Origin: an uncultured Candidatus Saccharibacteria bacterium
Lineage (GTDB): Bacteria > Patescibacteriota > Minisyncoccia > Phycocordibacterales > DATDWN01
Direction: 5' to 3'
DNA: 64,000 nt
Assembly (NCBI GenBank): GCA_964426735.1
Contig: CAYRRP010000003.1
Coordinates: 77,378 to 141,377, forward strand
The translations under genes and the position numbers were made by a program. Shown piece after piece: positions 22,941-45,758 of the stretch (the stretch's first letter is position 1; each line of letters begins with the position of its first letter). The notes under the pieces were generated by a model. It worked only from the letters and a program-made list of their open reading frames with translations. It was not told where the DNA came from and searched no databases.

Positions 22941-22990
22941 AGGAAAGTAAAAAGTCCATAAAGTTGAAAGTCCTTAAAGTCGGAACTCAA
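22941..22990 (-). promoter_or_regulatory. pilB upstream region carrying phased GACTTT direct repeats
   Basis: The minus-strand reading is ccGACTTTaagGACTTTcaACTTTatgGACTTTTTACTTTcctATG, with repeats spaced 8-11 nt. It is the same repeat flavour as the dksA-like and comM promoter modules. Confidence 0.45.
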
Positions 22991-23057
22991 ACTTTGAATT
23001 ACATTTAGTATATCAAAAAAGTAGTTTTCTCTAGTGTAAAAATGTGTACAAGAAAAG

Positions 23058-23090
23058 CCGGCCTAACATCATTAAACCGGCTTTCAGATC
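23058..23090 (-). terminator. intrinsic terminator for the small membrane protein gene
   Basis: Stem AAGCCGG/CCGGCTT with a U-run on the minus strand. Confidence 0.5.
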
Positions 23091-23091
23091 T

Positions 23092-23382
23092 TCACCCCCA
23101 TCCAAATCCTTTGTGATTCATTAACCACAAACCTACCCCTAGAAAAATTAGCCCATCCAAGCATTTAAACCCAGTTGGCACATCAAGACCAAGTCGGTAT
23201 GCGGTCGCGGTTAGCCAAAGACAGGTGGCCACTTGGAATCCAACTTGCTGGTCGACAAAGTACACACAGACTATGGCAACCGCGGACAATAGAGCGCAGA
23301 GCTTTTCCTTCACATCTGCACCTTCTCTAAAGAAAAACCAACCCTGTAAAAACAAGGTAAAAAGCAGAACAATCTCAAGCAT
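23092..23382 (-). CDS. small integral membrane hypothetical protein (96 aa)
   Basis: Three predicted TM helices and no recognised domain. Confidence 0.45.
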   Translation of the reverse strand: MLEIVLLFTLFLQGWFFFREGADVKEKLCALLSAVAIVCVYFVDQQVGFQVATCLWLTATAYRLGLDVPTGFKCLDGLIFLGVGLWLMNHKGFGWG

Positions 23383-23426
23383 CGTAAGAACTCCTTCCTT
23401 ATATAACTATACATAATTAGGTTGAT

Positions 23427-23455
23427 TTGACAATTTTTACCACTACTGTATTATA
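23427..23455 (+). promoter_or_regulatory. sigma70-like promoter TTGACA-17-(TGt)ATTATA upstream of nusA
   Basis: A consensus -35, a 17-nt spacer, and an extended -10. Confidence 0.5.
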
Positions 23456-23473
23456 TATGTATCTGACAAGTCC

Positions 23474-23498
23474 GCCCGAAAGGCGGGCACGTTTTTTT
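23474..23498 (+). terminator. promoter-proximal hairpin GCCCG-aaagg-CGGGC plus T7 (possible attenuator in the nusA leader)
   Basis: A 5-bp GC stem with 7 U lies about 12 nt after the predicted TSS, and about 160 nt of leader remain before the nusA ATG. Confidence 0.4.
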
Positions 23499-23658
23499 AA
23501 AAAATTATCAACATTCCAATTAATCACAAGCGGTTCAGATACGCCAGATTTCGAGGCAAAATTTGAAAAATCGAGGAGTCATACTTAATAGTACAGTGAC
23601 GAGCATTTTTTAAATTTTAACAAAGAAAGCTGGCAGTATATGAGACGCGTAACATATT

Positions 23659-24870
23659 ATGTTTGATTTAAAAGTAATCCATTCAGTTTTAACACAACTC
23701 GAAGAAGAGCGAGGTATTCCTCAAGCAAAAATTATTGAGGCTATTGAGCTCGCACTCGCAACTGCATATAAAAAAGAATATGGCAAAAAAGGCCAGATTG
23801 TTCGCGCTAAATTTGATATAAACTCAGGTGCAGTTGAAATGTACCAAGTTAAAATCGTTGTTGATGAGTCAACAGTCGTTATGGAGCTTGCAGACGATGC
23901 TGATCTCCCAGAAGGCATGGAGCTCTACAACCCAGAACACCACATGTTACTCGCCGATGCCAAACTCATCAAAAAGGATGCGGTACTCGGTGAAGAAATA
24001 GTCTTTCCACTCGAAGATAAGGCTGATTATAGCCGTATCGCAGCACAAACCGCAAAACAGGTAATCATGCAGAAAATCCGTGAAGCAGAAAAAGTGTCTG
24101 TACTTGGTGAATACGGTAAACGAGAAGGTGAGATTGTCACTGGTACTGTACAACGTATTGAACGAGGAAATATCTTTGTCGACATGGGTCGTGCAACTGG
24201 TCTACTTTCATACGAAGAGCAAATCCCTGGAGAACGATATGGTCAAGGTGAACGTGTACGAGCATACATGTACAGAGTAGAAGACTCAGGAAAAGGTGTA
24301 TTTTTGCGACTTTCACGTTCACATCCAAAATTCCTCGAGAAACTCTTTGAAGCAGAAGCTCCAGAGCTTGCAACAGGTGCAGTCGTAGTAAAATCAATCG
24401 CACGTGAAGCAGGTTCACGAACCAAGATCGCTGTTGCTTCAACTGATGAACATATTGACCCTGTGGGTTCTATGGTAGGTCAGCGTGGAGTACGTGTGGC
24501 GACTGTAATGTCTGAGCTTGGTGGCGAAAAAATTGATATTATCGAATGGAATGCAGATGCGAAGAAATTTATCGAAGAAGCCCTCTCTCCTGCAAAAATC
24601 CTTTCGATTGAGATCAATGAAGCTGACAAGTCAGCTAAAGTAGCAGTATCTCCAGACCAACAGTCACTTGCTATCGGAAAAGGTGGACAAAATGTACGTT
24701 TGGCAGCAAAACTCACTGGTTGGAGAATCGACATCCAGTCAGATGGCTCTACAGAGCCATTAGTAAGCGCAAGTGCAGCTCCAGTAGAAGCAGTTGCTGA
24801 CTCAGATGAAGGTTTTGCAGATATCTCAAGCCTAAAAGCTGATGCTCAAGAGGCAGAGAAGCAAGATTAA
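23659..24870 (+). CDS. nusA: transcription termination/antitermination factor NusA
   Basis: 403 aa with NusA N-terminal, S1 and KH domains (…GERYGQGERVRAYMY…GSMVGQRGVRV…). Confidence 0.95.
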   Translation: MFDLKVIHSVLTQLEEERGIPQAKIIEAIELALATAYKKEYGKKGQIVRAKFDINSGAVEMYQVKIVVDESTVVMELADDADLPEGMELYNPEHHMLLADAKLIKKDAVLGEEIVFPLEDKADYSRIAAQTAKQVIMQKIREAEKVSVLGEYGKREGEIVTGTVQRIERGNIFVDMGRATGLLSYEEQIPGERYGQGERVRAYMYRVEDSGKGVFLRLSRSHPKFLEKLFEAEAPELATGAVVVKSIAREAGSRTKIAVASTDEHIDPVGSMVGQRGVRVATVMSELGGEKIDIIEWNADAKKFIEEALSPAKILSIEINEADKSAKVAVSPDQQSLAIGKGGQNVRLAAKLTGWRIDIQSDGSTEPLVSASAAPVEAVADSDEGFADISSLKADAQEAEKQD

Positions 24871-24892
24871 AGATTAAGGAATAACTCAAAAA

Positions 24893-24915
24893 ACCTCCCC
24901 TAAGGGAGGTTTTTG
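24893..24915 (+). terminator. intrinsic terminator CCTCCCC-taa-GGGAGG-TTTTT
   Basis: Hairpin plus U-run 23 nt after the nusA stop. Confidence 0.8.
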
Positions 24916-24973
24916 CATCAACTTATTTTTTCCTGTACTATTGACTATTATCTATTAACTAAAGACTACTCTC

Positions 24974-25483
24974 ATGAATTTAATCAAAGAAATCAGTGCG
25001 GGATCAGCCGAAGAGATGAATGTTATCGTCGAAATCCCTAAAGGCTCTAAAAATAAATACGAAATCGACAAAGAAACCGGTCTTATTGCCCTCGACCGAG
25101 TGATGCATACTTCTCAGGATATGCCCTTTGACTATGGTTTTGTACCTCAAACCCTCTGGGAAGACGGTGACCCGCTCGATGTAGTAATCCTCACTACATA
25201 CCCTCTCCATCCTGGTATTTTGGCTAAGGTTCGCCCTGTCGGTATGATGGATATGGTGGATGATGGTGAAAGTGATGTGAAAATCATCGCTGTACCAGTC
25301 AAAGACCCTCGTTTTTCTGAAATAAAAGACCTTTCTGACGTCAACAAACATACAATCAAGGAAATGGAGCACTACTTCACTACCTACAAGAAACTTCAGA
25401 ATAAAGAAGTTATAATCAAAGGTTTCGGCGACAAACAAGCAGCAATGGATGCATTCAACAAAGCGATCGCCGCATTCAAATAA
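24974..25483 (+). CDS. ppa: inorganic pyrophosphatase (family I)
   Basis: …YEIDKETG…DGDPLDVVIL… are family I PPase motifs. Confidence 0.9.
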   Translation: MNLIKEISAGSAEEMNVIVEIPKGSKNKYEIDKETGLIALDRVMHTSQDMPFDYGFVPQTLWEDGDPLDVVILTTYPLHPGILAKVRPVGMMDMVDDGESDVKIIAVPVKDPRFSEIKDLSDVNKHTIKEMEHYFTTYKKLQNKEVIIKGFGDKQAAMDAFNKAIAAFK

Positions 25484-25599
25484 TCACTTCATCACTAATC
25501 CCCAGAAAGACCTGTCTGTAAATATACAGCCAGGTCTTTTACTTATATAATATACAGATAGGTATATGTCGCATATATCTATCTAATCGTAATATACCA

Positions 25600-26361
25600 A
25601 TGAAAAAATACTTATATATATCAATCATAACCTGTGCTCTTGTCTGCGCACCATACGTGTACGCAGAAGATGGTACAACAGGAACAGCAGAAACCACTTC
25701 TGCTACCACACCGACAGGTGCACCAAAACCAAGACCACTCGCTCCTATACGAGAAGTTCGAAAAGAAATTCGAGAAGACCGTAAGGAAATGAATGAAGGG
25801 ATCAGAGAGGATAAAAAAGAGTTTAACGAACAAGTGCGTGAAGACAGAAAAGCACTTGCCTCAAGTACTGCCTCTACAACACCTGCAATGCGAAAAGAAT
25901 TTCGAGAAGGTGTAAAAGAAGATCGTAAAGAGCTTCGTGAAGAAAACAAAGATAAACGAGAAGAATTTCGTGAGGAAAACAAAGATAAACGAAAAAATGC
26001 TCGACTAGAAACTATGGTAACTATCGTAGTAAATCGTCTCAATGCAACAATTACTCGCCTTGAAAAACTTATTGAAAAGCTCGATATGCGTATCGCTAAG
26101 TTTAAAGAAAAAGGTGCTGATGTAACTACTGCAACAGCAGCTTCAACAGAAGCAAAAAATGCAATCGCAAATGCTAAAAGCAAAGTAAGTGGTATCACCG
26201 TACCGACAAGCTCAACTACCGCATCAAGTACTGCTGAAACAATCAAATCAACAGTTAAACTCGTGGAACAAGACCTCAAAATGGCTCGATCTGCTCTCGA
26301 AAAAGCATTAAAAAGTTTTAAAGGTTTAAGCTCTCAAGCAACAACCACACCAACTAATTAA
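25600..26361 (+). CDS. secreted low-complexity coiled-coil protein with R-E-D-R-K-E heptad-like repeats
   Basis: Signal peptide MKKYLYISIITCALVCAPYVYA, then repeated (K/R)E(I/F)REDRKE(M/L/F) units and a Thr/Ala-rich tail. Confidence 0.6.
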   Translation: MKKYLYISIITCALVCAPYVYAEDGTTGTAETTSATTPTGAPKPRPLAPIREVRKEIREDRKEMNEGIREDKKEFNEQVREDRKALASSTASTTPAMRKEFREGVKEDRKELREENKDKREEFREENKDKRKNARLETMVTIVVNRLNATITRLEKLIEKLDMRIAKFKEKGADVTTATAASTEAKNAIANAKSKVSGITVPTSSTTASSTAETIKSTVKLVEQDLKMARSALEKALKSFKGLSSQATTTPTN

Positions 26362-26369
26362 TAGTCTCT

Positions 26370-26693
26370 ATGGAAAACGAAACAACAAATCAATTTCAAG
26401 CACCACAAACACCTGCTGAACAGGCTCCGGTAACAATGGTGCCTGAAAAATCTTCAACTAGTGGTATCATCGGCACAATTATTATTATTGCCCTTATTAT
26501 CCTCGGTGGATTATATTTCTGGGGTAAACGTATCAGTACTCAACAAGAAACAGCATCCCTTATCAATCAAGAACAAGTTGCTGCTCAGGAAGCGGCGGCG
26601 ATCCAGGCGGTAAGTACAAGTGATGAGGTAGATACGCTTCAAGCAGAACTTGATGCAACCATCACCTCTGATCTTGGTGCCGAACTCGAATAG
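26370..26693 (+). CDS. small single-pass membrane protein (107 aa)
   Basis: Central TM segment GIIGTIIIIALIILGGLYFWG with acidic termini. Confidence 0.45.
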   Translation: MENETTNQFQAPQTPAEQAPVTMVPEKSSTSGIIGTIIIIALIILGGLYFWGKRISTQQETASLINQEQVAAQEAAAIQAVSTSDEVDTLQAELDATITSDLGAELE

Positions 26694-26721
26694 AGCACAA
26701 TCACTCTATAATACTTTTGTA

Positions 26722-26746
26722 AAAACCTCGTGTAACGAGGTTTTTA
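26722..26746 (+). terminator. intrinsic terminator AACCTCG-tgtaa-CGAGGTTTTT
   Basis: Hairpin plus U-run after the 26370..26693 gene. Confidence 0.75.
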
Positions 26747-26754
26747 CTTGCTTT

Positions 26755-26806
26755 ATTCGTAAAAATTCGTATCATTCGTATATTCGTTAATTCGTATATT
26801 TATAAC
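26755..26806 (+). promoter_or_regulatory. ATTCGTA heptamer array (5 copies) ending in the conserved TATTCGTATATTTAT box, tig promoter region
   Basis: ttATTCGTAaaaATTCGTAtcATTCGTAtATTCGTtaATTCGTATATTTATaactATG. The same module occurs upstream of 58441. Confidence 0.5.
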
Positions 26807-26807
26807 T

Positions 26808-27878
26808 ATGGCTAAAAAAGATTACACAAACATTGTAGTGCACAAACTCCCCCAACAAGAAGTAGAAATTACTGGTGAAATTACTGTAGAAAAAATGGAT
26901 TCGATGCGAAAAAAAGCAATCGAATCACTTAAGAAAGAAATCACTCTTCCTGGATTTCGAAAAGGTACTGCACCTGAAAACCTTGTAATACAGCAGATTG
27001 GTGAAGTGAAAATACTTGAGGAAGCAGGAGAGCTTGCACTCGGTGAAGTATATCCTGATATTCTCGAAGATGAGAAACTTGATCCTCTTGGTAAACCAGA
27101 GGTAACTATCACGAAGATTGGTGTTGGTAGTGCCCTTGGTTTTAAGATCAAAACAGCACTGATGCCTGAAGTGAAAATCGGTAATTATAAAAAAATCGCC
27201 CAGAAAGTCTATGCAAAAGAAGTAGCTGTAGAAGTCACAGATAAAGATATTGAGGACGTCATCCTCAATCTTCGAAAAAATGTTGCTCATGCAAAACTCC
27301 ATGAAGAAGGTGGATATGATGAACACGATCACTCTCACGGAGAAATCAAAGATGAAGATTTACCAGAAGTAAATGATGATTTCTTAAAACAGATTGGTGA
27401 GTTTGCATCAGTTGAAGATTTAAAAGAAAAAATAAAAGAAAATCTCCTTAAAGAAAAAACTTTTAAAGCAAAAGATAAAAAACGAACAGAAACACTTGAA
27501 GAAATTATTAATGCATCAACAATTGAAATTCCCCAGATCTTGATTGATGGAGAGCTTGATCGAATGAAAGCTCAGTTTGAGGATGATTTGGCACAATCAG
27601 GTATTACACTTACAAACTACCTCTCATACGCAAAGAAAACAGAGGACGACCTCAAGGCTGATTGGAAAGATACGGCAATCAAACGAGCAAAATCTCAAAT
27701 CATTCTTAATACTATTGCAAAAGAAGAGAGCATCACACCTGACGAAGCGATGATAAAAACGGAAATGGAAAAAATCCTCGCACACCACAAAGATGCAGAA
27801 CGTTTCCGTGTACGAATGTATGTGGAAACATTTCTCACCAATGATTTGGTGTTTAAGTTTCTTGAGGAGCAGAAATAG
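26808..27878 (+). CDS. tig: trigger factor (short form; no FKBP-type PPIase domain recognised)
   Basis: N-terminal ribosome-binding signature LPGFRKGTAP. It is 356 aa against about 430 for the canonical protein. clpP follows downstream. Confidence 0.75.
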   Translation: MAKKDYTNIVVHKLPQQEVEITGEITVEKMDSMRKKAIESLKKEITLPGFRKGTAPENLVIQQIGEVKILEEAGELALGEVYPDILEDEKLDPLGKPEVTITKIGVGSALGFKIKTALMPEVKIGNYKKIAQKVYAKEVAVEVTDKDIEDVILNLRKNVAHAKLHEEGGYDEHDHSHGEIKDEDLPEVNDDFLKQIGEFASVEDLKEKIKENLLKEKTFKAKDKKRTETLEEIINASTIEIPQILIDGELDRMKAQFEDDLAQSGITLTNYLSYAKKTEDDLKADWKDTAIKRAKSQIILNTIAKEESITPDEAMIKTEMEKILAHHKDAERFRVRMYVETFLTNDLVFKFLEEQK

Positions 27879-28091
27879 TTGACGAAAAAGTAAGAGTATC
27901 TTATTCTTAGTTTAGACTTGCTCCCGCAGAGTAAGACCGCTTGATTCAGGAGGTGAAGAGGAAGAGACGCAAAAATAGCGAGCCCCTATTGGACGTGGGG
28001 GTGAAAAAGCGAAGGATGTTATGAACCCTTCGCTTTTTATATTGACTTATTTTTACCACTCGAGTAACCCTGGAGCTTACTACCTTTTATA

Positions 28092-28799
28092 TTACATTCC
28101 CAAAAGCACAGCTCCAGCGATTGCTGCTGTCTCTGCTCGCAAAATACGAGGTCCAAGTGCAAACCCTGCAACATTGTATTGTCTAAAGAGTGCGATTTCT
28201 TCATCACTAAAACCTCCTTCTGGACCAATAAAATAAGCAAATGAATACTGGTTTGTGTGTGCAGATAGATATTGCTGTATCGGAGGAAACTCGGGATGAA
28301 AAAATATTTTTTCTTGAGGAAGCACACCACGTTCAAACAGTTTTGGTAGTGTAGTCAGTTCATGTACTGTGAGCAATTCCCCTCTTCCCGACTGTTCTGT
28401 TGCCTCTTGAACAATCTTTTGCAATCGCTCCATATTGAGTTTTTTCTTTTCACTTCGTTCACCAACAATAGGAACAATATGACTCACACCGAGCTCCACT
28501 GCTTTTTGTACCACCAATTCAACATTATCTTTTTTAATAAGCGAAAGGCATAGCCAAATATTTTTTATAGGCGCTGCGATTTCTTTTGTTTCAAGGATTG
28601 AAAGTTCTGCTTCAGACGGAGAAACTTTTGCAATCACTGCTCGACACTCAATACCTGAACCATCAAATACAATCACCTGACTTCCTACATTATATCGAAA
28701 GACCTTTCGCCATTGGTGAATCAGGTCTCTGTTAGAGATATGTATACTTTTTTCCTTTTCAACTATTTTTTCAGTTATATAAAATCGATGGAGTCTCAT
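28092..28799 (-). CDS. rsmE: 16S rRNA (uracil1498-N3)-methyltransferase RsmE
   Basis: MRLHRFY… start and C-terminal GPEGGFS…LGPRILRAETA motifs. The start is taken at the internal Met of the longer track ORF. Confidence 0.8.
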   Translation of the reverse strand: MRLHRFYITEKIVEKEKSIHISNRDLIHQWRKVFRYNVGSQVIVFDGSGIECRAVIAKVSPSEAELSILETKEIAAPIKNIWLCLSLIKKDNVELVVQKAVELGVSHIVPIVGERSEKKKLNMERLQKIVQEATEQSGRGELLTVHELTTLPKLFERGVLPQEKIFFHPEFPPIQQYLSAHTNQYSFAYFIGPEGGFSDEEIALFRQYNVAGFALGPRILRAETAAIAGAVLLGM

Positions 28800-28899
28800 A
28801 TACCAATATTGTGCAACAAAGAGTGTAAAAATGAAAGGTCTAGCATAATTCGTTTCTTTTGCTATAATAGTTAACACATTAACAATCAATATTGAATAT

Positions 28900-29475
28900 A
28901 TGAGCTATTTAGTACCAACAGTAATTGAAAAAACAAACATGGGTGAGCGAGCATACGATATCTACTCTCGCCTACTCAAAGACAATATTATCTTTTTAGG
29001 TGGGCCGATTGACGACACCGTTGCAAACCTCGTCATTGCCCAGCTTCTTTTCCTCCAGTCTGAGGATCCAAAAAAGGATATCTCTATTTATATCAACTCA
29101 CCAGGAGGGTCCGCTTCTGCTACGTTGGCGATGATTGACACAATGAATCATATTAAAAATGATGTTTCTACTGTATGTATCGGTATGGCCGCTTCAGGTG
29201 GTGCATGGATGCTCTCTGCAGGGACAAAAGGTAAACGTTTTGCACTTCCTAATGCTGAGATTATGATTCACCAGCCACTCGGAGGTGCTGAGGGTCAGGC
29301 TACCGATATTGAGATTCGAGCAAAACAAATCCTCAAACTCCGTGAAAACCTCACAAAAATCATGGCAAAAAATACTGGTCAAACTGTAGCAAAAGTGGCT
29401 CAAGACATTGACCGTGACTTCTGGATGAATTCTGAAGAAGCCAAAAAATACGGAATTATTGACAAAGTGTTGTAA
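28900..29475 (+). CDS. clpP: ATP-dependent Clp protease proteolytic subunit
   Basis: Catalytic Ser-His-Asp context, …[14 protein letters not shown]…IMIHQPLGG…. Confidence 0.95.
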
Positions 29476-29507
29476 TAAAATATAGTAATTACAGAAAGGG
29501 CATTTAT

Positions 29508-29717
29508 ATGGTAATCATCGTAGTTGTAGGTCATTTGGGTGAAGAAAAATTGTTCTACGCCAAAACAACAGAAGAGGCGGAAAACACTTTACTCTTAAAA
29601 GGTTTTACGCTCTCAACAAAAAATGAGTCGGTTTTTTGGGAAGACACCTATCGTGGATGCCGAGCGAAAATCAAAAGACCTGAGGCATCTATCCCGCACA
29701 TCTCGGATCTTTGTTAA
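29508..29717 (+). CDS. small hypothetical protein (69 aa) co-transcribed with clpP
   Basis: The ORF lies between the clpP stop and an intrinsic terminator. The RBS is weak and there is no similarity. Confidence 0.3.
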   Translation: MVIIVVVGHLGEEKLFYAKTTEEAENTLLLKGFTLSTKNESVFWEDTYRGCRAKIKRPEASIPHISDLC

Positions 29718-29718
29718 A

Positions 29719-31523: not shown

Positions 31524-31669
31524 TAATAACTTCGACTGTCTACTCATGACTTATGACTACACACTTCCTTGTCCGTCAACCCCTTGCACTCGAAAACCCT
31601 TGGTATATAATAGCTATATAGTAGATAGGGTGAGTCTTGAAAGATTACAAATTTAGTTTTACAACATCC

Positions 31670-36740: not shown

Positions 36741-37027
36741 AATATTTGAGTAGGTACAGGAGGATTCGTAGTATAAAGTACACAATTTCCTTTGTATAAA
36801 GCCATTTTTGGAGACTTTTGGACACAAAGTCTTATACTTTGAAGCCTGTCAAAGACTGTCTCTAATACACATGTCCACAGACTTATCCACAGTTTTCAAC
36901 ATATTTTGTGTAAAACTGACTTTAATTTAAAGACTTTGTCCCACAGAATAGGGGTTTAATGGAGACAGTCCGTGATCAAATAGACAAAACTTGGCAAAAG
37001 CTAGAAAAAAGGTATGATACATATATT

Positions 37028-37101
37028 GCACCCGTAGCTCAATTGGATAGAGTATTTGTCTTCGGAACAAAGGGTTGCAGGTTCGAGTCCTGCCGGGTGC
37101 A
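37028..37101 (+). tRNA. tRNA-Arg (anticodon TCG)
   Basis: GCACCCG/CGGGTGC acceptor, anticodon loop CTTCGGA, T-arm GCAGG-TTCGAGT-CCTGC. Confidence 0.9.
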
Positions 37102-37107
37102 CACGAC

Positions 37108-37136
37108 AAAAAATCCCAACTGCTTGGGATTTTTTG
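37108..37136 (+). terminator. intrinsic terminator ATCCCAA-ctgc-TTGGGAT-TTTTT
   Basis: Hairpin plus U-run immediately after tRNA-Arg. Confidence 0.7.
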
Positions 37137-37296
37137 CTACGTGTGCACAACGGAGACATGTTTTTTCAGCAGAAAAAAAGGTCGAGTTGTGGACCGAAGG
37201 AAATTTCAATTCGACGGAATTGAAATTATCCGAAGTGTACAAGACAAAACCCTATGTATTTGAATTTCTCCCCACTTTGTGTAAAATGAAGGGGAA

Positions 37297-37367
37297 GCGG
37301 CTATGGTTTAGTGGTAGAACACGTCCTTGCCAAGGATGAGATTCGGGTTCGATTCCCGGTAGCCGCA
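37297..37367 (+). tRNA. tRNA-Gly (anticodon GCC)
   Basis: GCGGCTA/TAGCCGC acceptor, anticodon loop TTGCCAA, T-arm CGGG-TTCGATT-CCCG. Confidence 0.9.
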
Positions 37368-37496: not shown

Positions 37497-37545
37497 AGTG
37501 CCCATACTCATAAATAAGGCCTCCAAAAGCCTTAAAATCACTCAT

Positions 37546-39018
37546 ATGAATACAAACTTCACTATCCCTGTCGAAGTGTCACGTGTAACACAAACCCTCG
37601 AAAATGCCGGTTTTGAGGCTTTTTTGGTTGGTGGATGTGTACGAGATCTTATCCTCAACAAAAAACCAAAAGATTGGGATGTTACTACCAACGCAACACC
37701 TGAGCAAATCATTGCTTTGTTTCCACATACCTTTTACGAAAACAACTTTGGAACAGTTGGTGTTGTTTCAGATGAAACAGAAGATGACACTCTTAAAACT
37801 ATTGAAGTTACGCCATACCGTCTTGAATCAGAGTATTCTGACAATCGACGCCCAGACGCTGTTACTTTTTCACAAAATCTCACAGATGACTTAAGGCGAC
37901 GCGACTTCACCATTAACGCCCTTGCATACTCAGTATCTAAAGGACAACTCACTGATGTCTTTAATGGACAAGCTGATATTTCTGCTCAAACTATACAAAC
38001 AGTAGGGAATGCGGTCGAAAGACTCACTGAAGATGCCCTTCGTATCATGCGAGCAGTGCGGTTTCATGTGGAACTTGGCTTTATCCTTTCACGTGAAACG
38101 GAAAAAGCGGTACTTGAACACGGTCATTTACTACAAAACATCTCAAAGGAACGCATTCGTGACGAATTTACAAAGATTATTATGTCTCCGCAGCCAATGA
38201 ATGGCTTACTCATGCTGAAAAAGCTGAATTTACTTCAGTATATTGTACCAGAACTGGAAAAAACTATTGGGGTAGAGCAGAACCGGGCACATTCATACGA
38301 TGTATGGGAACATTTACTTCGAAGCCTCCAGACTGCAGCAGATAAGAACTGGCCTCTTGATATTAGACTTACCGCTTTATTTCACGATATTTCAAAACCT
38401 GAGACACGTCGATGGGGAAAAGAGCAGAATACGTGGACATTTTACGGTCATGAAGTAGTTGGTTCACGTGTAACACGGAAAATACTTACTGATTTGCGAT
38501 ATCCGAATAAACTAATTGATAAAGTGGTGACAATGGTGCGATGGCATATGTTTTTTTCTGACACAGAACAGATAAGCCTCTCTGCGGTCCGTAGAATGAT
38601 CGTAAATGTTGGACGAGAGAATATCTGGGATTTGATGAATGTACGCATCTGCGACCGTGTAGGAACTGGTAGACCCAAAGAAGATCCGTACCGCCTCCGC
38701 AAATACCATGCAATGATAGAGGAGGCTCTTCGTGACCCGATTACTGTAGGAATGTTGAAAATAGATGGTAAACGTTTAATCGATGTTACACAGGGAACAC
38801 CTGGTCCTAAAATAGGGTATACACTTCATGCATTACTCGAAGAGGTACTCGAAGATCCAACTAAAAACACTGTGGAATATTTAGAAAAACGCTCTGTTGA
38901 GCTCTATACTATGGATGAGATCGAATTAAAAAAGCTCGGTGAACAAGGTAAACAAACGAAAGAAGAAATAGATCAGCAGGAAATCTCAAAAATTCGTAAA
39001 GGACACAAAGTAAAGTAG
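37546..39018 (+). CDS. cca: CCA-adding tRNA nucleotidyltransferase (Pol-beta head plus HD domain)
   Basis: …GFEAFLVGGCVRDLIL…DWDV… head domain and an HD-domain C-terminus. The start is taken at MNTNFTIP, not the track start 37498. Confidence 0.85.
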   Translation: MNTNFTIPVEVSRVTQTLENAGFEAFLVGGCVRDLILNKKPKDWDVTTNATPEQIIALFPHTFYENNFGTVGVVSDETEDDTLKTIEVTPYRLESEYSDNRRPDAVTFSQNLTDDLRRRDFTINALAYSVSKGQLTDVFNGQADISAQTIQTVGNAVERLTEDALRIMRAVRFHVELGFILSRETEKAVLEHGHLLQNISKERIRDEFTKIIMSPQPMNGLLMLKKLNLLQYIVPELEKTIGVEQNRAHSYDVWEHLLRSLQTAADKNWPLDIRLTALFHDISKPETRRWGKEQNTWTFYGHEVVGSRVTRKILTDLRYPNKLIDKVVTMVRWHMFFSDTEQISLSAVRRMIVNVGRENIWDLMNVRICDRVGTGRPKEDPYRLRKYHAMIEEALRDPITVGMLKIDGKRLIDVTQGTPGPKIGYTLHALLEEVLEDPTKNTVEYLEKRSVELYTMDEIELKKLGEQGKQTKEEIDQQEISKIRKGHKVK

Positions 39019-39028
39019 TTCTGCAAAT

Positions 39029-39141
39029 AAGTTAAACTGCTTCAGATGCTAGGCGCGAGAGAATTTGTGAGTGAGTTGTACTTGTCGTACGGTGAGCGAA
39101 CAAATTTGAATCGCAACAACGCAGATGGAGTAATTTAACTT
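39029..39141. repeat. copy B of the conserved ~110-nt intergenic structured-element family
   Basis: Outer stem AAGTTAAA / TTTAACTT. Inner stem AATTTGT / ACAAATT. Central hairpin TTGTAC-ttgtc-GTACGG with G-U pairs. 3' consensus …GCAACAACGCAGATGGAGTAATTTA. Confidence 0.7.
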
Positions 39142-39497
39142 ATTTAACAACAAAAAACCGCCCAAGGTGGCGTCATTTGTCGCAAAGACGGCTCACGGGC
39201 GGCTAAAGAAGTATTTCCCAGCAAGAATAAGGATTTGATAAATATCTCAATCTTAAAATATATAGTAGATAGTGTAGATATGTATATCTCTTGTCCTATC
39301 GAACCAAGAAACCTTCATGGGGGAGAACCTGCAGATTCTCAAATGTACAAACGCACAACTTTATGTGTAAAGAACTTTAAACGACAGAATTGTTTGTTTC
39401 TTTTTTGATGAAACTCTCGATCCTGTTCTGGAGTAACTATATCAGACAGATAAAAGTCATGTAAAGGACTATGCTGTGGATAACTTTGTCTTATTAA

Positions 39498-40268
39498 TTA
39501 TATAGCAATGTCCAATTGAAGAGGACAGTGGTCTGACCCTAAAATATCATTGTGTATAGTCATATTTTTCACATTTGAAAGAAGTGATGTGTCAACAAAA
39601 AAATAATCGATTCTCCATCCAACATTTCTACTTCGTGCAAATGTTTTCATATCCCAGTATGTGTATATATCTTTTGCATCAGGATTTTTTTCTCTCCATA
39701 CATCAACAAAATTATTTTGCACCACTTCATCAATCCATGCTCGTTCGATAGGGAGGAAGCCTGTATTTTTCTCATTTTCTTTTGGTCGAGCAAGATCAAC
39801 AGCGGTATGTGCAGTATTTACATCTCCACAGAAAATCACCTTCATACCTTTTTTACGAAGCTTAAGAATAAACACAAGAAAGTGTTTATAAAACTCGAGT
39901 TTATATGCAAGACGCTCTGGACCACCTCCTCCGTTAGGGAAATAGCAGTTCAGTAACACAAATTCATCAAAATACGCAACGATGAGACGCCCTTCTTGAT
40001 CCATTTCGGGAATACCCATACCATACTCGACTTTATTTGGTTCAATCTTTGAGTAAATAGCGACACCGCTGTACCCCTTACGTGTTTTTGAGGAATTAAA
40101 ATATGAAAAATACCCTAAAGGAGAGCGTACTTCATCTGGAAGTTGATGTGATTCTGATTTAGTTTCCTGTATACAAAAAATATCCGGACTTTGGTCAATA
40201 AGCCACTGAAACGCACCTTTTTTAAAAGATGCCCGTGCACCATTTACATTCCATGAGATTATTTTCAT
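39498..40268 (-). CDS. exoA: exodeoxyribonuclease III (AP endonuclease)
   Basis: MKIISWNVNG…CIQETK… is the EEP-family ExoIII/Xth signature. Confidence 0.9.
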   Translation of the reverse strand: MKIISWNVNGARASFKKGAFQWLIDQSPDIFCIQETKSESHQLPDEVRSPLGYFSYFNSSKTRKGYSGVAIYSKIEPNKVEYGMGIPEMDQEGRLIVAYFDEFVLLNCYFPNGGGGPERLAYKLEFYKHFLVFILKLRKKGMKVIFCGDVNTAHTAVDLARPKENEKNTGFLPIERAWIDEVVQNNFVDVWREKNPDAKDIYTYWDMKTFARSRNVGWRIDYFFVDTSLLSNVKNMTIHNDILGSDHCPLQLDIAI

Positions 40269-40296
40269 TACTAAAAGATATTACCACACCTTGAAT

Positions 40297-40416
40297 GAAG
40301 AAGTTAAATTGCTCCAGATGCTAGGCGCGAGAAAATTTATGAGTGAACCGTACTTGTAGTACGGTGAATGAATAAATTTGAATCGTAACAACGCAGATGG
40401 AGTAATTTACTTCTTT
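40297..40416. repeat. copy C of the conserved ~110-nt intergenic structured-element family
   Basis: About 85% identical to copy B. Outer stem GAAGAAGTTAAATT / AATTTAcTTCTT. Inner stem AATTTAT / ATAAATT. Central hairpin CCGTAC-ttgta-GTACGG. Its 3' arm overlaps the xerC-like stop. Confidence 0.7.
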
Positions 40417-41393
40417 CCGTGAAATTTCTTGTGAATGTCACGCAGGTGCTTGTCGGTTACGTGTGTATAAATCTGGGTCGTAATAATGCTCGAATGACCC
40501 AACAAAGCCTGAACTGAGCGAATATCTGCTCCGTTTGAAAGTAAATCAGTCGCAAAGAGATGACGCATGGTGTGCGGTGTTACACGTTTTGAAATACCTG
40601 CTTTGATTGCATATTGTTTGATGATGCGCTCTATTGTCCGTTTGGTCAGGGGACTTGCTTCTTTACTAGTAATTTCTCGCCCTACCTGCACAAAAAGAGC
40701 ATCATTCATATCTTTACGGAGAGACAAGTACGCCTTGAGACAATTTTTTGCAGTATCTGAAAGAAATACTACTCGCACCTTTCCTCCTTTTCCTCGAATA
40801 GAAAGTTCATCGGAAGTCAGATCAATATCAGACGTGAGGGAACAGAGCTCAGAAACACGCAAACCTGTTGAAAATAATAATTCGAGAATTGCTTTGTCAC
40901 GAACTGTCTTCAAATCACTACCTTTAGGAGCATCGAGAAGGCGAGCGAGCTCATTTTCTGTAATAAGATCAAGAAGACGCTCTCCAGTTTTTGCAAGGTC
41001 GATACGCTCAGGCGCAAGAGAAGTGACACCTTCTCGAGCAAGAAACTTGAGAAACGCCCGGAGTGCAATCAGGTGATAGTTTTGAGTTTTTTTAGAAAGA
41101 GTATTTTTTTTGGCTTTATCAAGTCCTGAAAGTTGTCTGTTGAGCCACAAACGAAACTCTCGTACCACCATATCGGTGATATCTCCTGGTTTTGAAGCTT
41201 TTGTTTGCTCAAGAAAGCGTACAAGGTAATGTAAATAGTTTTGCCGAGTCTGGATAGATCGCCCTCTTTCTATTTCAAGATAGTTGAGAAAATCACGAAG
41301 AAAACGCCCTAAGGGGGTTTTCGGTATTCTTTCTTCTTCTGTCAAAGCAGGTTTGCGTTTAGACGTCTCTTTTTTAATCTTTTCCTCTGCCAT
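40407..41393 (-). CDS. tyrosine site-specific recombinase (XerC/XerD family)
   Basis: C-terminal catalytic motifs …HTMRHLFATDLL…LLGHSSIITTQIYTHV…. Confidence 0.85.
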   Translation of the reverse strand: MAEEKIKKETSKRKPALTEEERIPKTPLGRFLRDFLNYLEIERGRSIQTRQNYLHYLVRFLEQTKASKPGDITDMVVREFRLWLNRQLSGLDKAKKNTLSKKTQNYHLIALRAFLKFLAREGVTSLAPERIDLAKTGERLLDLITENELARLLDAPKGSDLKTVRDKAILELLFSTGLRVSELCSLTSDIDLTSDELSIRGKGGKVRVVFLSDTAKNCLKAYLSLRKDMNDALFVQVGREITSKEASPLTKRTIERIIKQYAIKAGISKRVTPHTMRHLFATDLLSNGADIRSVQALLGHSSIITTQIYTHVTDKHLRDIHKKFHGKK

Positions 41394-41492
41394 TTGTATA
41401 ATTCTAACATAGCTTCACGTCGCACAATAACAGAACAATCGCGCGCTAAAGCACTTGCATTATGGTTTTATTTGTGATATCTTATAAAAACA

Positions 41493-41759
41493 ATGTTAAC
41501 CAAGACAAAAAAGGCAAAAGTTATCGATACCGTGAAAATTCACGATACAGACACTGGATCTCCAGAGGTTCAGATTTCTATACTCTCAAAACGAATCGAC
41601 GAGCTTGCTTCACACCTCAAGAAAAACAATAAAGATAACCACTCACGACGTGGACTTCTCCAGATGGTGGCTGACCGAAAAGCTCACATGAAATACCTCG
41701 AGAAGAAATCTCCAAAACGATACGCTTCACTCATCAAAAAACTCGGTTTGAAAAAATAG
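41493..41759 (+). CDS. rpsO: 30S ribosomal protein S15
   Basis: 88 aa, …TGSPEVQISIL…HLKKN.KD.HSRRGLL.MV..R… is the S15 signature. Confidence 0.9.
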   Translation: MLTKTKKAKVIDTVKIHDTDTGSPEVQISILSKRIDELASHLKKNNKDNHSRRGLLQMVADRKAHMKYLEKKSPKRYASLIKKLGLKK

Positions 41760-41858
41760 CAAACAGAAAAACTACCCGAAAGGGTATTTTTCTTATGCTA
41801 TACTTAGTATGTTCCATTTTTTCATAAAGCATTGCAATTAATTTTTTAATACAAAAAC

Positions 41859-42455
41859 ATGTCAGTCATTAAACATAAAAATCAACGAGTCGGTATCTTC
41901 ATCGACACCCAAAATCTTTATCACACCGCTAAAAACCTCTATGGTTGCAAAGTAAATTTTGACCAAGTGGTCAAAGACGGTCTTGCAGGACGTTCTCTTA
42001 TCCGTGCTGTGGCATATGTCATCACCACTGAAGCAGGAGATGAAAAGGGTTTTTTTGATGCGCTTGAAAAAGTAGGTATCGAAACAAAAACAAAAAATCT
42101 CCAAATTTTCTCTGGCGGAGCAAAGAAAGGGGACTGGGATGTAGGGATGGCGGTAGATGCTATCAAGCTTGCACCAAAGCTTGATGCGGTAATCCTTGTT
42201 ACCGGAGACGGGGATTTTGTACCACTTGCAGAGTATCTCCGTACAAACCAAGGTTGTCAGGTAGAAGCAATCTCTTTTGGAAAATCTTCATCTTCAAAAC
42301 TTATTGAAGCTGTGGATGACTTTATCGATCTCGACACAAACCCAGCAAAATACCTGATCGGATATCGATCGAGACGACCTCATGCTCGAAATTTTCGTAA
42401 ACAATCCAGAGTAGACCAGGCGCCAGATCAATCAGTTGACAATCAGACTGAATAA
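41859..42455 (+). CDS. NYN-domain (LabA-like) protein
   Basis: …VGIFIDTQNLYH…AVILVTGDGDFVPL… is the PIN-like NYN signature. Confidence 0.75.
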   Translation: MSVIKHKNQRVGIFIDTQNLYHTAKNLYGCKVNFDQVVKDGLAGRSLIRAVAYVITTEAGDEKGFFDALEKVGIETKTKNLQIFSGGAKKGDWDVGMAVDAIKLAPKLDAVILVTGDGDFVPLAEYLRTNQGCQVEAISFGKSSSSKLIEAVDDFIDLDTNPAKYLIGYRSRRPHARNFRKQSRVDQAPDQSVDNQTE

Positions 42456-42698
42456 TTCTATTCTAAGAACAGAGTCTTGTGTGTACTTCCGCATCCCCCC
42501 GACACATAAGAACACCTCATGAGGGGCCATAGGGCGGAGCCCCTCCTGCACTTATTCATATATTGTTTTTTAGACTGTCTCTATCTTCTCCAGTGGTGGA
42601 AATGTATCGAGATAGTCCTTATGAGGATCCATGCTCTGCACAGCATTGTATTGATCCTCTTTTTTTATATACAGAAATACTGATATACTTATATACAA

Positions 42699-43649
42699 AT
42701 GCCCCCTCTCCCTGACAACAAAAAAAATAGTTTGCAGTCTGTGGTTGACACGATTCAATCACAAATAAGCTCTTCTTCTAAAAACCAGCCGACACCGGGA
42801 TACATTCCAAACCCTCAATTAAAATCACTGCGAACATTTCAAGGTGATGTGCAGGAACATATCGAAACAAAAAAAGAAACAATAGCCACCATCGCACTAG
42901 CTGAACAGAAGAAGAAAATTGAACATAATGAACCTACATACACCGAACGCCCAACGCATTCTTTTACTGCAGGTATTTTGGTTACCATTAGTATTATTTT
43001 TCTTGCAGTAGGCGGAATGATTATAGGGGGAATATATTTTTTTAAAACCACCGCCGAACCCACCTCTTCTCTTACTACTGAACAAACAATAATCACATAC
43101 ACTGATAAAAAAGATGTTGTTCTTCCTGGAATAACACATGAATATTTGGCAGCAGCACTACGGAATGAAAAAACATCATTTACTACAGAAGTAGATCGTA
43201 TTCTCCATACAACTTTTTCATATGGAACAAGCAGTCTCACCACAACTGAGCTGATACCTCTTATCGCACCAAACGCGGGAGATGCATTGCAAAGAAATAT
43301 CACTTCTGTGATGGTTGGTGTCTACTCATATGACACTCATGAGGTATTTTTCTTATTACGTCCCGATGATTTTGGTATTGTATATTCTGGAATGTTGAAT
43401 TGGGAAAGTGCACTTGGAAATGATATGGCTGATTTTTTCCCAGCACTACAAAACCATCTCATCACAAACCCTTCAATCTTTACTGACGAAACATATAAAA
43501 ACAAAGATGTACGTGTAATCAAAGATACAAATGGAAATGTTGTTCTTCTGTATGGATTTATTGATAAAAACACACTCGTGATCACTGCTAATGAGAAAAT
43601 ATTTGAAGCTATTTTGAATCGCTACCTACAAAGTAAACTCTCTCGCTAG
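42699..43649 (+). CDS. membrane-anchored hypothetical protein (316 aa)
   Basis: Single TM (ILVTISIIFLAVGGMIIGGIYFF) and no recognised domain. Confidence 0.45.
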   Translation: MPPLPDNKKNSLQSVVDTIQSQISSSSKNQPTPGYIPNPQLKSLRTFQGDVQEHIETKKETIATIALAEQKKKIEHNEPTYTERPTHSFTAGILVTISIIFLAVGGMIIGGIYFFKTTAEPTSSLTTEQTIITYTDKKDVVLPGITHEYLAAALRNEKTSFTTEVDRILHTTFSYGTSSLTTTELIPLIAPNAGDALQRNITSVMVGVYSYDTHEVFFLLRPDDFGIVYSGMLNWESALGNDMADFFPALQNHLITNPSIFTDETYKNKDVRVIKDTNGNVVLLYGFIDKNTLVITANEKIFEAILNRYLQSKLSR

Positions 43650-43695
43650 TAAAAATTTATCAAGTTCGCAATGTTGAATGTACATACTTGATATA

Positions 43696-43749
43696 TTTCT
43701 GACTTGATAGGCTTTTGACTTGATGGACTTGATGGACTATCATGTACAT
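43696..43749 (+). promoter_or_regulatory. promoter module 1 with GACTTGAT(A/G)G direct repeats (TTGACT-17-TATCAT); the ATG follows directly
   Basis: tttctGACTTGATAGgcttttGACTTGATGGACTTGATGGACTatcatgtacatATG. It is near-identical in layout to 44147..44201. Confidence 0.5.
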
Positions 43750-44109
43750 ATGATTAATACTGAATATTTTAAAGAAAAACTTGAGGCAGAATTAAAAACC
43801 GTCGAGGCTGAATTGCATACAGTGGGAAGAAAAAACCCATCAAACCCTTTGGATTGGGAAGCAAAAGAGGGTGAAATGAACACCGATACTGCAGAGGAAG
43901 CTGAAGTTGCAGAAGGTATTGAAGAGTATGAAAATAACTCAGCAATCTTGAAGCAACTAGAAATTCGATATAATGAAATAAAAGACGCTCTCGCAAAGAT
44001 AGATATGGGTACATATGGTATCTGTGAAGTTTCTGGCTTGCCGATTGAAGAAGATAGACTTGAAGCCAACCCCGCAGCACGCACCTGCAAAGCTCACATG
44101 AATTCATAA
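43750..44109 (+). CDS. DksA/TraR-family C4-type zinc-finger-like protein
   Basis: C-terminus …GICEVSGLPIEEDRLEANPAARTCKAH resembles the DksA/TraR zinc-finger region, preceded by a coiled coil. The start is assigned by alignment of the two promoter modules. Confidence 0.55.
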   Translation: MINTEYFKEKLEAELKTVEAELHTVGRKNPSNPLDWEAKEGEMNTDTAEEAEVAEGIEEYENNSAILKQLEIRYNEIKDALAKIDMGTYGICEVSGLPIEEDRLEANPAARTCKAHMNS

Positions 44110-44146
44110 CCACAAACCCATCAGAGCTACTGTAAATACGAAAAGC

Positions 44147-44201
44147 ATTTCTGACTTGATAGACTTTGGACTTTATAGACTTGATGGACTAAAATAGACA
44201 T
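44147..44201 (+). promoter_or_regulatory. promoter module 2 (duplicate of module 1) directly abutting the comM start codon
   Basis: tttctGACTTGATAGactttgGACTTTatagACTTGATGGACTaaaatagacatATG; -10 TAAAAT ends 9 nt before the ATG, so the mRNA would be near-leaderless. Confidence 0.5.
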
Positions 44202-45758
44202 ATGTCTATTTCTCAAATATACAGCGCTCAGACAAACCTCCTCGATGCCTCCATAGTGACTATAGAAGTGGACCTCTCAAAGGGGCTCCACTCTTTTTCT
44301 ATAGTAGGACTTGCAGGGAAAGCGGTGGATGAAGCAAAAGACCGCGTATCTTCTGCAATTAAAAATACCGGTTTTACTTCACCAAAAAGTAAAAACCAAA
44401 AAGTTGTTGTATCACTTGCTCCCGCTGATATCAAAAAAGAAGGACCTGCATTTGATCTCGGTATTGCTGTCGGATATTTGTGTGCCTCAGGAGACATTCA
44501 AGCGGATATGAAGAAGACTGTGTGTATTGGTGAACTTTCACTCGATGGAAGTATTCGAAAAGTGAAGGGTATTATCCCGATGATTATCGAGGCTCGAAAA
44601 AGAGGTTTTACTGATTGTATTATTCCAAAAGAAAATAGTATTGAGGCATCAGTGATACCTGACATCACCATATATCCCGCAGAAACATTACGTGAAGTGA
44701 TTGGTCATATTCACACAAACCCTCATGGAGAAAAATGGCCTGGAATAGAAAGTACTCCTATACCAACTCTTGAAATACACACTCCTGAAATCCACCTCGC
44801 GCACAATGATGTCGATATGCAGGATGTCGCGGGACAAGAGGTAGCAAAGCGCGCACTCGAAATAGCGGCGGCAGGTGGACATAATATTATTATGTATGGC
44901 CCACCAGGAACAGGAAAAACGATGCTCGCTAAAGCATGCAAAGGATTACTTCCTGAACTTTCTTTTGATGATATGCTCGAAGTTACATCGATTCACTCAC
45001 TTCACAATGGAGGAGGGGATTTGATAACCGCTGCACCGTTTCGTGCACCACACCATACTGCATCATATGTATCAGTGGTCGGAGGTGGTTCAAGCCCACG
45101 ACCAGGAGAAGTAACTCTGGCGCACAAAGGAGTACTTTTTTTGGATGAGATGCCCGAGTTTAGTACACAAGTACTCGAAACACTTCGTGAACCACTCGAA
45201 GAAAAGAAGGTGCGTATCAGTCGAGCAAAAGGAAGTGTAGTATACCCTGCACAATTTATCCTCGTGGGAGCAATGAATCCGTGTCCCTGTGGATACTATG
45301 GAGTGAAGGGAAAGGAATGTATTTGTTCACCGATTCATATTCAAAAATACAAACGAAAACTTTCGGGACCAATCGCTGATCGTATTGATATATGGGTTGA
45401 AGTAAATACAGTCGAACACTCAGAGCTTACAAAAAAGGGGACAGGTGAAACAACGGCCGATATTAAAAAACGTGTTCAAGCAGCTCGAAATATCCAAAAA
45501 AATCGATATATCGAAAAAGGAATCAGTCTCAACAGCGAACTCTCCGGCAAACAGCTTGTTGAAATGATTCACCTCTCTCCTGAAGCAAAAGGAATACTGG
45601 AAGCATCAGCAAAAAAGTTTGATATTTCAGCACGTGCATATCATCGAATCATCAAAACCGCACAAACAATTGCCGACCTTGCAGAAAGTGTACATATCCA
45701 ACCAGAGCATATTCTCGAAGCATTACAATATCGCCCAAAAGCGTATCAGATTATTTAA
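44202..45758 (+). CDS. comM: YifB/ComM-family Mg-chelatase-like AAA+ ATPase
   Basis: N-terminal Lon-like domain, Walker A GPPGTGKT, and a C-terminal Mg_chelatase_C region. Confidence 0.9.
   Translation: MSISQIYSAQTNLLDASIVTIEVDLSKGLHSFSIVGLAGKAVDEAKDRVSSAIKNTGFTSPKSKNQKVVVSLAPADIKKEGPAFDLGIAVGYLCASGDIQADMKKTVCIGELSLDGSIRKVKGIIPMIIEARKRGFTDCIIPKENSIEASVIPDITIYPAETLREVIGHIHTNPHGEKWPGIESTPIPTLEIHTPEIHLAHNDVDMQDVAGQEVAKRALEIAAAGGHNIIMYGPPGTGKTMLAKACKGLLPELSFDDMLEVTSIHSLHNGGGDLITAAPFRAPHHTASYVSVVGGGSSPRPGEVTLAHKGVLFLDEMPEFSTQVLETLREPLEEKKVRISRAKGSVVYPAQFILVGAMNPCPCGYYGVKGKECICSPIHIQKYKRKLSGPIADRIDIWVEVNTVEHSELTKKGTGETTADIKKRVQAARNIQKNRYIEKGISLNSELSGKQLVEMIHLSPEAKGILEASAKKFDISARAYHRIIKTAQTIADLAESVHIQPEHILEALQYRPKAYQII

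Follow-up and report, generated by a model that had tools for sequence, protein, structure and literature searches.

The window analysed here is a stretch of 64,000 nucleotides from an uncultured Candidatus Saccharibacteria bacterium (contig CAYRRP010000003.1, positions 77,378 to 141,377). It contains three modules of short GACTT repeats, situated directly upstream of the pilus gene pilB, a dksA-like gene and comM. These modules are probably orphan arms of a selfish cassette family built around a PF05635 gene, and they would serve as portable promoters. This reading is carried by the architecture of the modules, their homology to the arms of complete cassettes, their presence and absence among relatives and their matches to promoter consensus sequences. 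PF05635 represents S23p, the '23S rRNA intervening-sequence protein', a four-helix bundle which forms a homopentamer. In the proposed scheme an arm would be a stretch of ~40 bp composed of five GACTT-type units spaced 9-7-9-7 or 9-7-9-9 bp, a complete cassette would consist of an inverted arm, the PF05635 gene and a second arm, and the window would hold three orphan arms along with one decayed arm.

From the source genome, the window and 10 kb past it (L175) were examined, 74 kb in total. Relatives were represented by the contigs of proteins matched in a protein search with ComM and PilB, and labels such as L170 and L177 denote their loci. The nearest homologues of both proteins were labelled Zambryskibacteria, Minisyncoccota, Paceibacterota or Parcubacteria. 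Use of ComM as query against genome and metagenome collections recovered distant relatives only (identity <=57%).

GACTT pentads in the window

All three modules reported in the initial annotation were found in place. The pair at the dksA-like gene (M1) and at comM (M2), described there as near-identical stretches of ~55 nt, are 58 nt each and share ~86% identity over this full equal length, the final ACATATG included. The region upstream of pilB, to which the same kind of repeat had been ascribed, holds five GACTT-type units. The degenerate copy upstream of the HU gene is an extra site beyond those listed earlier. Clusters, defined as at least three same-strand copies of GACTT within 60 nt, are ~20-fold more frequent in the window than expected from Markov shuffles (5 observed, 0.27 expected), and the word itself shows no enrichment (74+47 observed, ~65+73 expected). 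Neither the cluster scan nor the start-region scan revealed a GACTT array at any other start region of the window.

Unit spacings were tabulated for nine intact arrays found in four genomes (n=32 intervals). All nine possess exactly five units and their length never varies. The standard spacing is 9-7-9-7 or 9-7-9-9, with single 8- and 9-nt intervals in the L170 arrays as the sole departures, and the intervals of 9 and 7 bp alternate around a mean of 8.2 bp. Variation is concentrated in the 2- and 4-nt spacers, the G-A-C-T-T core being nearly invariant. This alternation contradicts the phasing at roughly one helical turn which had been suggested for the repeats, and response-regulator-style repeats of 10-11 bp are ruled out by the same spacing.

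The GACTT pair noted earlier near tRNA-Arg is also present (36918 and 36932), but its architecture differs and it does not belong to the pentad family. The promoter-like site of this tRNA gene (TTGGCA-16-TATGAT, 36991-37018) is situated downstream of the pair. A three-copy cluster within the pilB coding sequence is likewise without pentad architecture. A generic -35 preference of the organism had been offered as a fallback explanation, and the unit does resemble TTGACT; the absence of enrichment of GACTT and of arrays at the other start regions speaks against it. It is hardly credible that the pentads are chance or generic -35-like sequence, or slippage-prone simple repeats with phase-variable expression. 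Pilus genes are often phase-variable in other bacteria, and the window does hold one perfect array (CTTCGGTT x7.4 at 2916-2974). However, the units of the pentads are imperfect, every intact copy has five of them across four genomes, the clusters far exceed the chance expectation, and GACTT is not a general promoter word here.

M1 and M2 each contain a sigma-70-like promoter match. In M1, the -35 hexamer TTGACT is unit 3 and the -10 hexamer TATCAT is composed of unit 5 (GACTA) followed by TCAT. M1 and M2 can be taken as right-type arms with an outward sigma-70-type promoter, in which unit 3 would provide the -35 and unit 5 with the four following bases the -10; since the repeats double as both hexamers, the two arms would act as portable outward promoters. 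The initial annotation had proposed a fixed offset of the ATG, 9 nt after a -10-like hexamer, and near-leaderless transcripts. The promoter-like character and the fixed offset are borne out, but the distance is 6 nt and not 9 when the better hexamers TATCAT and TAAAAT are considered. As these hexamers end 6 nt before each ATG, transcripts of the dksA-like gene and of comM would lack a leader. Leaderless-looking starts are the rule in this genome and not special to the modules, because only 5 of 61 genes have a Shine-Dalgarno-like sequence and TANNNT hexamers peak 6-7 nt ahead of the start codons (the genome-wide mode).

The pilB module is of left-arm type, and no sigma-70 site was found in it by the same promoter scan. 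It is situated between the pilB ATG and a conserved extended -10, which probably represents the resident pilB promoter with a start site predicted from the sequence. If so, the pentad would lie within a leader of about 60 nt and would be leader or operator DNA. Two units in opposite orientation beside the pentad (GAACT and AACTT) are possibly a remnant of a partner arm, as suggested tentatively by the sequence. In L170, AAAGTGC-AAAGTC adjoins the pilB pentad at the position matching this run.

Complete cassettes around PF05635 genes

Two complete cassettes with GACTT arms were identified in relatives. L170 contains a 115-aa PF05635 gene between pgk and a HIT gene, with inverted GACTT pentads on both sides which overwrite the last codons of both neighbours. 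The insert is missing from the same position in three other relatives (L172, L173, L174). The second cassette, from a further Zambryskibacteria species (L177-L186), lies between ftsE and ftsX; its PF05635 gene is 72% identical to the first and is bordered by inverted arrays of the same kind. Its right arm in L177 ends ...GACTTTGGACTTTATGGACTTTATGGACTAGAAT, 12 nt 5' of the ftsX ATG, and faces ftsX with TGGACT-17-TAGAAT, a layout matching the TGGACT-17-TAAAAT of M2. The PF05635 genes of L170 and L177 both scored above the Pfam threshold. The two arms of each complete cassette could pair with predicted energies of -46 kcal/mol (z -8.8) and -30.6 kcal/mol (z -5.5).

To relate the window modules to these arms, ten GACTT arrays including M1, M2, the pilB module and the arms around the PF05635 genes were aligned (alignment A2), and all ten aligned in register. 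M2 is 86% identical to the right arm of L177 and 84% identical to that of L170, on par with the identity between M1 and M2. The pilB arm is closest to the left arm of L170 (77% identical). A strict triple-GACTT pattern occurred 6 times in 0.30 Mb of DNA from the clade versus once in 1.76 Mb of other DNA, where it falls in a coding region. A strict triple in the Firmicute-labelled L004 was dismissed as chance, since it lies in coding DNA on the opposite strand. The pattern TTGACTTGATGGACTT...GACTT gave 0 matches in viral contigs, and the search for similar DNA in phages and plasmids gave chance-level matches only (E 0.03 or worse).

Flanking arrays are a common feature of PF05635 genes. Additional genes of this family were obtained from distant ComM-flank loci (L097, L082) and from IMG/VR contigs; a scan of viral contigs with a single protein gave no match while alignment-based scans succeeded. 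Loci were scored for at least four units upstream along with at least three reverse-complement units downstream, with 3000 random 350-nt intervals as controls. Such inverted arrays were found at 15 of 20 PF05635 loci from diverse sources (L170, L177, L097, L082, L187, L189, L194-L211) versus 1 of the 3000 controls. All hand-checked PF05635 proteins (6/6) scored above the Pfam gathering threshold. The arrays consist of ~4-6 short direct repeats, mostly heptads, and the motif differs from locus to locus: GAAGGCW in L097, ATTTTCA in L082, TCAACGT x5 on either side in L187, TAGCTTT x5 on either side in L189, CGTTAC with a spacing of 7/8/9 in L197, GGCAG in L198, GAGTG in L204, AGTTG in L208 and GTAGT in L209. 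Under the counting rule, arms from 18 diverse loci mostly have 4 units (14 arms) or 5 units (12 arms). The array upstream of the PF05635 open reading frame (ORF) adjoins or overlaps the frame's own promoter-like -35 in L187 and L189. Apart from heptamers in Coxiella, no description of such a rule was found in the searchable literature.

The PF05635 genes of L097 and L082 adjoin comM in distant bacteria. In L188 (~300-390), two tandem PF05635 genes share a hybrid array in which ACGTTGA units run into TCAACGT units, suggesting from sequence that the cassettes can stack.

A compatible extension of the orphan-arm reading, tentative and rather doubtful at present, is that PF05635 proteins are sequence-specific pentamers, each reading the array of about five repeats which flanks its own gene, one repeat for each subunit. 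The repeats would then be both element ends and operators, and the orphan arms would place pilB, comM, the dksA-like gene and the HU gene under a regulatory layer controlled by the protein of the element. The clustering of arm sizes at 4-5 units with locus-specific motifs is consistent with such binding, and the array at the -35 of the ORF itself in L187 and L189 occupies the usual position of an autoregulatory operator. Both PDB relatives of the family, 2gsc and 2rld, have five chains per entry, and a homopentameric toroid has been described for the S23p protein from Xanthomonas campestris (PMC4990558). Avd of the same fold family is a positively charged, basic pentameric barrel which binds an RNA element (bioRxiv 10.1101/2023.10.23.563531; PMC10053308). 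On the other hand, the counting rule yields four-unit arms as often as five-unit arms, a symmetric ring would not easily match a 7/9-bp alternation on double-stranded DNA, and the 74 kb of this genome revealed no PF05635 gene. The S23p of Coxiella was reported to be probably not expressed (PMC4990558).

The arrays may alternatively act at the RNA level, as leader elements for an RNA-binding protein or as RNase III stems like those of rRNA intervening sequences, but this is quite improbable. In Coxiella, the intervening sequence of the 23S rRNA, described as a selfish element, is excised by RNase III; it has inverted repeats and an S23p ORF directly preceded by 3-4 GACAGAT heptamers in tandem (PMC4990558). 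The paired arms of a complete cassette would form a comparable long duplex around the ORF. The pilB arm, being downstream of the conserved extended -10, would be transcribed, and no terminator was found between the dksA-like gene and M2. Against this, the orphan arms are partnerless and fold no better than shuffles (z +0.62, -0.42, +0.22). Arms also occur in both orientations with respect to transcription, and even upstream of promoters (at HU in L170; the upstream array of L187).

Occupancy of the same sites in related genomes

Four relatives (L162, L164, L166, L168) with a ComM 79-91% identical to that of the window keep the gene order rpsO-NYN-hyp-dksA-comM, and the hyp316-dksA-comM order of the window is retained in relatives. 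None of the four has GACTT repeats at dksA or comM. In all of them dksA possesses a plain leaderless promoter of TTGCCG/TACAAT type, and the dksA-comM gap is 4-18 nt in three and 155 nt, free of GACTT repeats, in the fourth. In the window genome, arms probably displaced the ordinary promoter of an ancestral dksA-comM operon, and comM was probably split off with a promoter of its own.

A comparison with five relatives showed that the pilB slot, the 60-95 nt between the invariant extended -10 and the ATG, has replaceable content. The GACTT pentad occupies it in the window, L170 and L172, while L171 and L173 carry an unrelated palindromic TACGAAT/ATTCGTA cassette and L174 only remnants of that cassette. 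L170 and L171 encode an identical PilB protein, yet one has the pentad and the other the palindrome. The slot upstream of HU varies similarly: L170 and L171 have an intact pentad there, L172 has a TTCGTA palindrome and the window the decayed pentad. At both pilB and HU, TACGAAT/ATTCGTA palindromes of some strains stand where others have a GACTT pentad.

The initial annotation had regarded the repeats as tandem operators of a dedicated regulator, a response regulator or competence factor, which ties pilus, DNA uptake and DksA-like functions together. Three intact pentads of this genome do precede pilB, the dksA-like gene and comM, their cores are conserved while the spacers vary, and the pilB copy is far better conserved between two genomes than synonymous sites are. 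Nevertheless such a regulon is unlikely. The repeats are missing at dksA and comM in the four relatives despite the high identity of their ComM, and the pilB slot is swapped for an unrelated cassette in a strain with identical PilB. In relatives, pentads also precede the HU gene and enclose a PF05635 gene, overwriting pgk and the HIT gene at their 3' ends, which contradicts the supposed targeting of these functions. Moreover, M1 and M2 are duplicates over their whole length and not independently evolved sites. A Pfam scan of 40 window ORFs identified no cognate regulator, the only DNA-binding candidates being HU and a HicB-like antitoxin. Nor did these ORFs include a gene for a ribbon-helix-helix (omega/MetJ-like) regulator, and this candidate binder was rejected. 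What looks like a tie between pilus and competence genes is peculiar to this single genome.

Several observations weigh against the modules being orphan arms of a selfish cassette which work as promoters. The 660 nt scanned contain no excess of sigma-70-like sites over shuffles (2 observed, 1.9 expected), so the promoter case rests on position and on conservation in L177, not on number, and what we infer about promoter activity of M1 and M2 and a leaderless start at their ATG comes from consensus matches only. No PF05635 gene was detected in the 74 kb of this genome by tblastn or by the family hidden Markov model, complete GACTT-flanked cassettes are known from two loci only, and neither a target-site duplication nor a transposase is evident. 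Homologous recombination between strains could also be the cause of the slot swaps. Finally, the pilB pentads of the window and L172 are 94% identical while the third-codon identity of pilB is 57%, which points to constraint and a present-day function or to recent transfer, and not to inert debris.

Table 1. GACTT arrays, promoter-like sites and associated genes in the window, with unit spacings of the arrays in relatives
Feature	Position	Strand	Details
M1, right-arm-type GACTT pentad with predicted built-in promoter	43695..43752	+	3' end = ATG of dksA-like gene
M1 units	GACTT 43701, GGCTT 43710, GACTT 43717, GACTT 43726, GACTA 43735	+	spacing 9,7,9,9; ATG 43750
M2, right-arm-type GACTT pentad with predicted built-in promoter	44147..44204	+	3' end = comM ATG
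M2 units	GACTT 44153, 44162, 44169, 44178, GACTA 44187	+	spacing 9,7,9,9; ATG 44202
pilB left-arm-type GACTT pentad	22941..22985	-	abuts pilB ATG (22940); without usable -10 of its own
pilB pentad units	22981, 22972, 22965, 22956, 22949	-	spacing 9,7,9,7
Opposite-orientation units GAACT, AACTT beside pilB pentad	22983..22996	+	read from sequence
Sigma-70-like promoter in M1, TTGACT-17-TATCAT	43715..43743	+	promoter scan, 10/12 matches
Sigma-70-like promoter in M2, TGGACT-17-TAAAAT	44167..44195	+	promoter scan, 9/12 matches
Conserved extended -10 (TGATATACT) upstream of pilB slot	23007..23015	-	invariant in all five aligned relatives, whichever cassette follows
Degenerate GACTT arm 5' of -35 of HU gene promoter	31530..31575 (approx.)	+	GACTG/GACTT/GACTA/CACTT, spacings 14, 7, 7
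HU gene downstream of degenerate arm			Pfam PF00216
dksA/traR-type zinc-finger gene, 119 aa	43750..44109	+	Pfam PF01258, E 1e-08
comM/yifB, Mg-chelatase-like AAA+ ATPase, 518 aa	44202..45758	+	Pfam PF01078, PF13541, PF13335
pilB, T2SSE ATPase	21189..22940	-	Pfam PF00437, PF05157; heads pilB-pilC-pilin-like operon, PilC and N_methyl protein downstream
GACTT cluster near tRNA-Arg, non-member	36880..36936	+	spacings 38 and 14 nt
pilB array, L172			spacing 9,7,9,7
pilB array, L170			spacing 9,7,8,7
HU-upstream arrays, L170 and L171			spacing 9,7,9,7
Arm 5' of PF05635 gene, L170 (reverse complement)			spacing 9,9,9,7
Arm 3' of PF05635 gene, L170			spacing 9,7,9,9

Other repeat families, known systems and significance

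Short-period repeat arrays are a general feature of the intergenic DNA of this genome: regions with at least 4 copies of a 5-mer in 50 nt were intergenic in 9 of 9 cases, and only 15% of the window is non-coding. The TACGAAT/ATTCGTA palindromes constitute a second cassette family. Their arms have 3-5 TACGAAT / ATTCGTA units and usually end ...ATTCGTAT(A/G)TTTA directly before an ATG. In the window they are situated upstream of tig (26755-26800), of a TraG/VirB4-like ATPase gene (58322-58430) and of pgk (15025-15050). Elsewhere they were seen in L175 (8540-8620) and L166 (4140-4235), upstream of pilB in L171 and L173, upstream of HU in L172 and upstream of nusA and pgk in L173. They fold as long hairpins (z -5.4 in L171), and no ORF was seen inside them. 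A third family is composed of TTAATC(N) heptads, direct or inverted, near several gene starts and ends. It is represented in the window at 57635-57660, 45749-45793 and 1082-1097, in L175 at 13147-13213 (ruvC-yebC gap, as an inverted pair), upstream of ppa in L170, L172 and L173, and in L008 at 841-866. In the window, the region upstream of the inorganic pyrophosphatase gene has ACTATTA-type heptads (24937-24961), and relatives have the TTAATC heptads in this slot.

Among the remaining arrays, WATCTCW heptads (GAGAT/ATCTC, 4 copies each) occur at 60245-60287 of the window and at 8264-8289 of L175, in opposite orientation and ~7.8 kb apart, spanning the dnaA region; one of them is directly upstream of an 81-aa ORF. 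TGACTAA heptads (~5 copies, minus strand) lie between rpsL and rpsG (2108-2144). The distant Parcubacteria locus L008 has direct and inverted sets of TTGACAn heptads upstream of rpsO and an NYN gene. The near-perfect 8-mer array CTTCGGTT (98% matches, minus strand) is directly upstream of a TATAAT, and is followed by ~90 nt with two hairpins and a T-run (2815-2905) upstream of rpsL. A leader or small RNA that is missing from the annotation may be encoded here, and the array is regular enough for slippage; no Rfam match was obtained even at E <=1.

A non-coding region of ~270 nt (39150-39420), bordered by the genes for the CCA-adding enzyme and an exo/endonuclease-phosphatase, seems by eye to be conserved with 4245-4530 of L166 (ComM identity 84%). 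This may be a so far unrecognised RNA gene; Rfam gave no match to it. Within the window, Rfam recognised four tRNAs and no other RNA, and two further non-coding regions that were checked gave no match. Two tRNA genes overlap the ORF at 36959-37339, which is probably spurious. In the interval separating the UPF0102 gene from tRNA-Arg (36860-36945), a perfect DnaA-box-like TTATCCACA is found along with three (T)CCACAG repeats; the dnaA-dnaN region is ~1.5-3 kb past the 3' end of the window (L175 5504-6844). A UvrD-like helicase, 665 aa in the window, has 1017 aa including an intein-splicing domain in one relative (L164 11574-14627; L165 4171-7224).

The closest known systems are the 23S rRNA intervening sequences with an S23p ORF of Leptospira, Coxiella and Xanthomonas. 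They share the PF05635 ORF, bounding inverted repeats, a character regarded as selfish and horizontally moving and, in Coxiella, the heptamers (PMC4990558). They differ in residing in helix 25 or 45 of the 23S rRNA, whereas the cassettes described here are situated between protein genes (pgk/HIT, ftsE/ftsX). Unlike in those elements, the arms are arrays of five units, also occur solitarily without an ORF, and are fused to start codons as putative promoters. A classical 23S rRNA intervening sequence was rejected as the identity of the elements, as modules and cassettes lie between protein genes and the window has no rRNA.

Putative mobile promoters, which are near-identical promoters before non-homologous genes of one genome and rewire transcription, are matched by M1 and M2 (Matus-Garcia et al. 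2012, PMC3488235; PMC3575422). In contrast to them, the source is traceable here to an arm of a cassette family and the hexamers are built from the repeats of the element itself. Correia elements of Neisseria, which resemble miniature inverted-repeat transposable elements, are small, non-autonomous, bounded by inverted repeats and gene-adjacent, donate promoters and vary in presence between strains. The arms share these traits by analogy only: they are tandem arrays with a 5-nt core, no transposase or target duplication was identified, and the complete copies carry a non-transposase ORF.

Short direct repeats are read by the subunits of oligomers in the heptads of omega, the 8-bp met boxes of MetJ and the 11 GAG/UAG RNA repeats bound by the TRAP ring. 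The arms are alike in having sub-helical direct repeats overlapping promoters, an analogy of possible action and not of membership; they differ in that no gene of these kinds is associated with them and that intervals of 7 and 9 bp alternate in them. The PF05635 fold family also includes Avd of diversity-generating retroelements, a pentameric, basic nucleic-acid-binding barrel. Unlike in those retroelements, no reverse transcriptase or template/variable repeats were found near the cassettes, and flanking arrays are not a feature of them. TIGR arrays, with two alternating 8-12-nt repeats, 9-nt spacers, 36-nt units and a Nop-domain Tas gene, were also rejected, as the core here is 5 nt, the spacers are 2-4 nt and the units number five; none of the scanned ORFs next to the modules gave a Nop-domain match.

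The function of S23p/PF05635 proteins has been unassigned since their discovery in rRNA intervening sequences. The combination of a pentameric S23p with arrays of ~4-6 repeats provides a concrete binding hypothesis, and possibly a handle on the movement of the element. If this is true, the orphan arms across Parcubacteria genomes would constitute a fast-evolving, element-controlled regulatory layer over host genes. On the orphan-arm reading itself, short repeat-arm cassettes can exchange the promoters of pilus and competence genes wholesale between close strains of these reduced, uncultivated bacteria.

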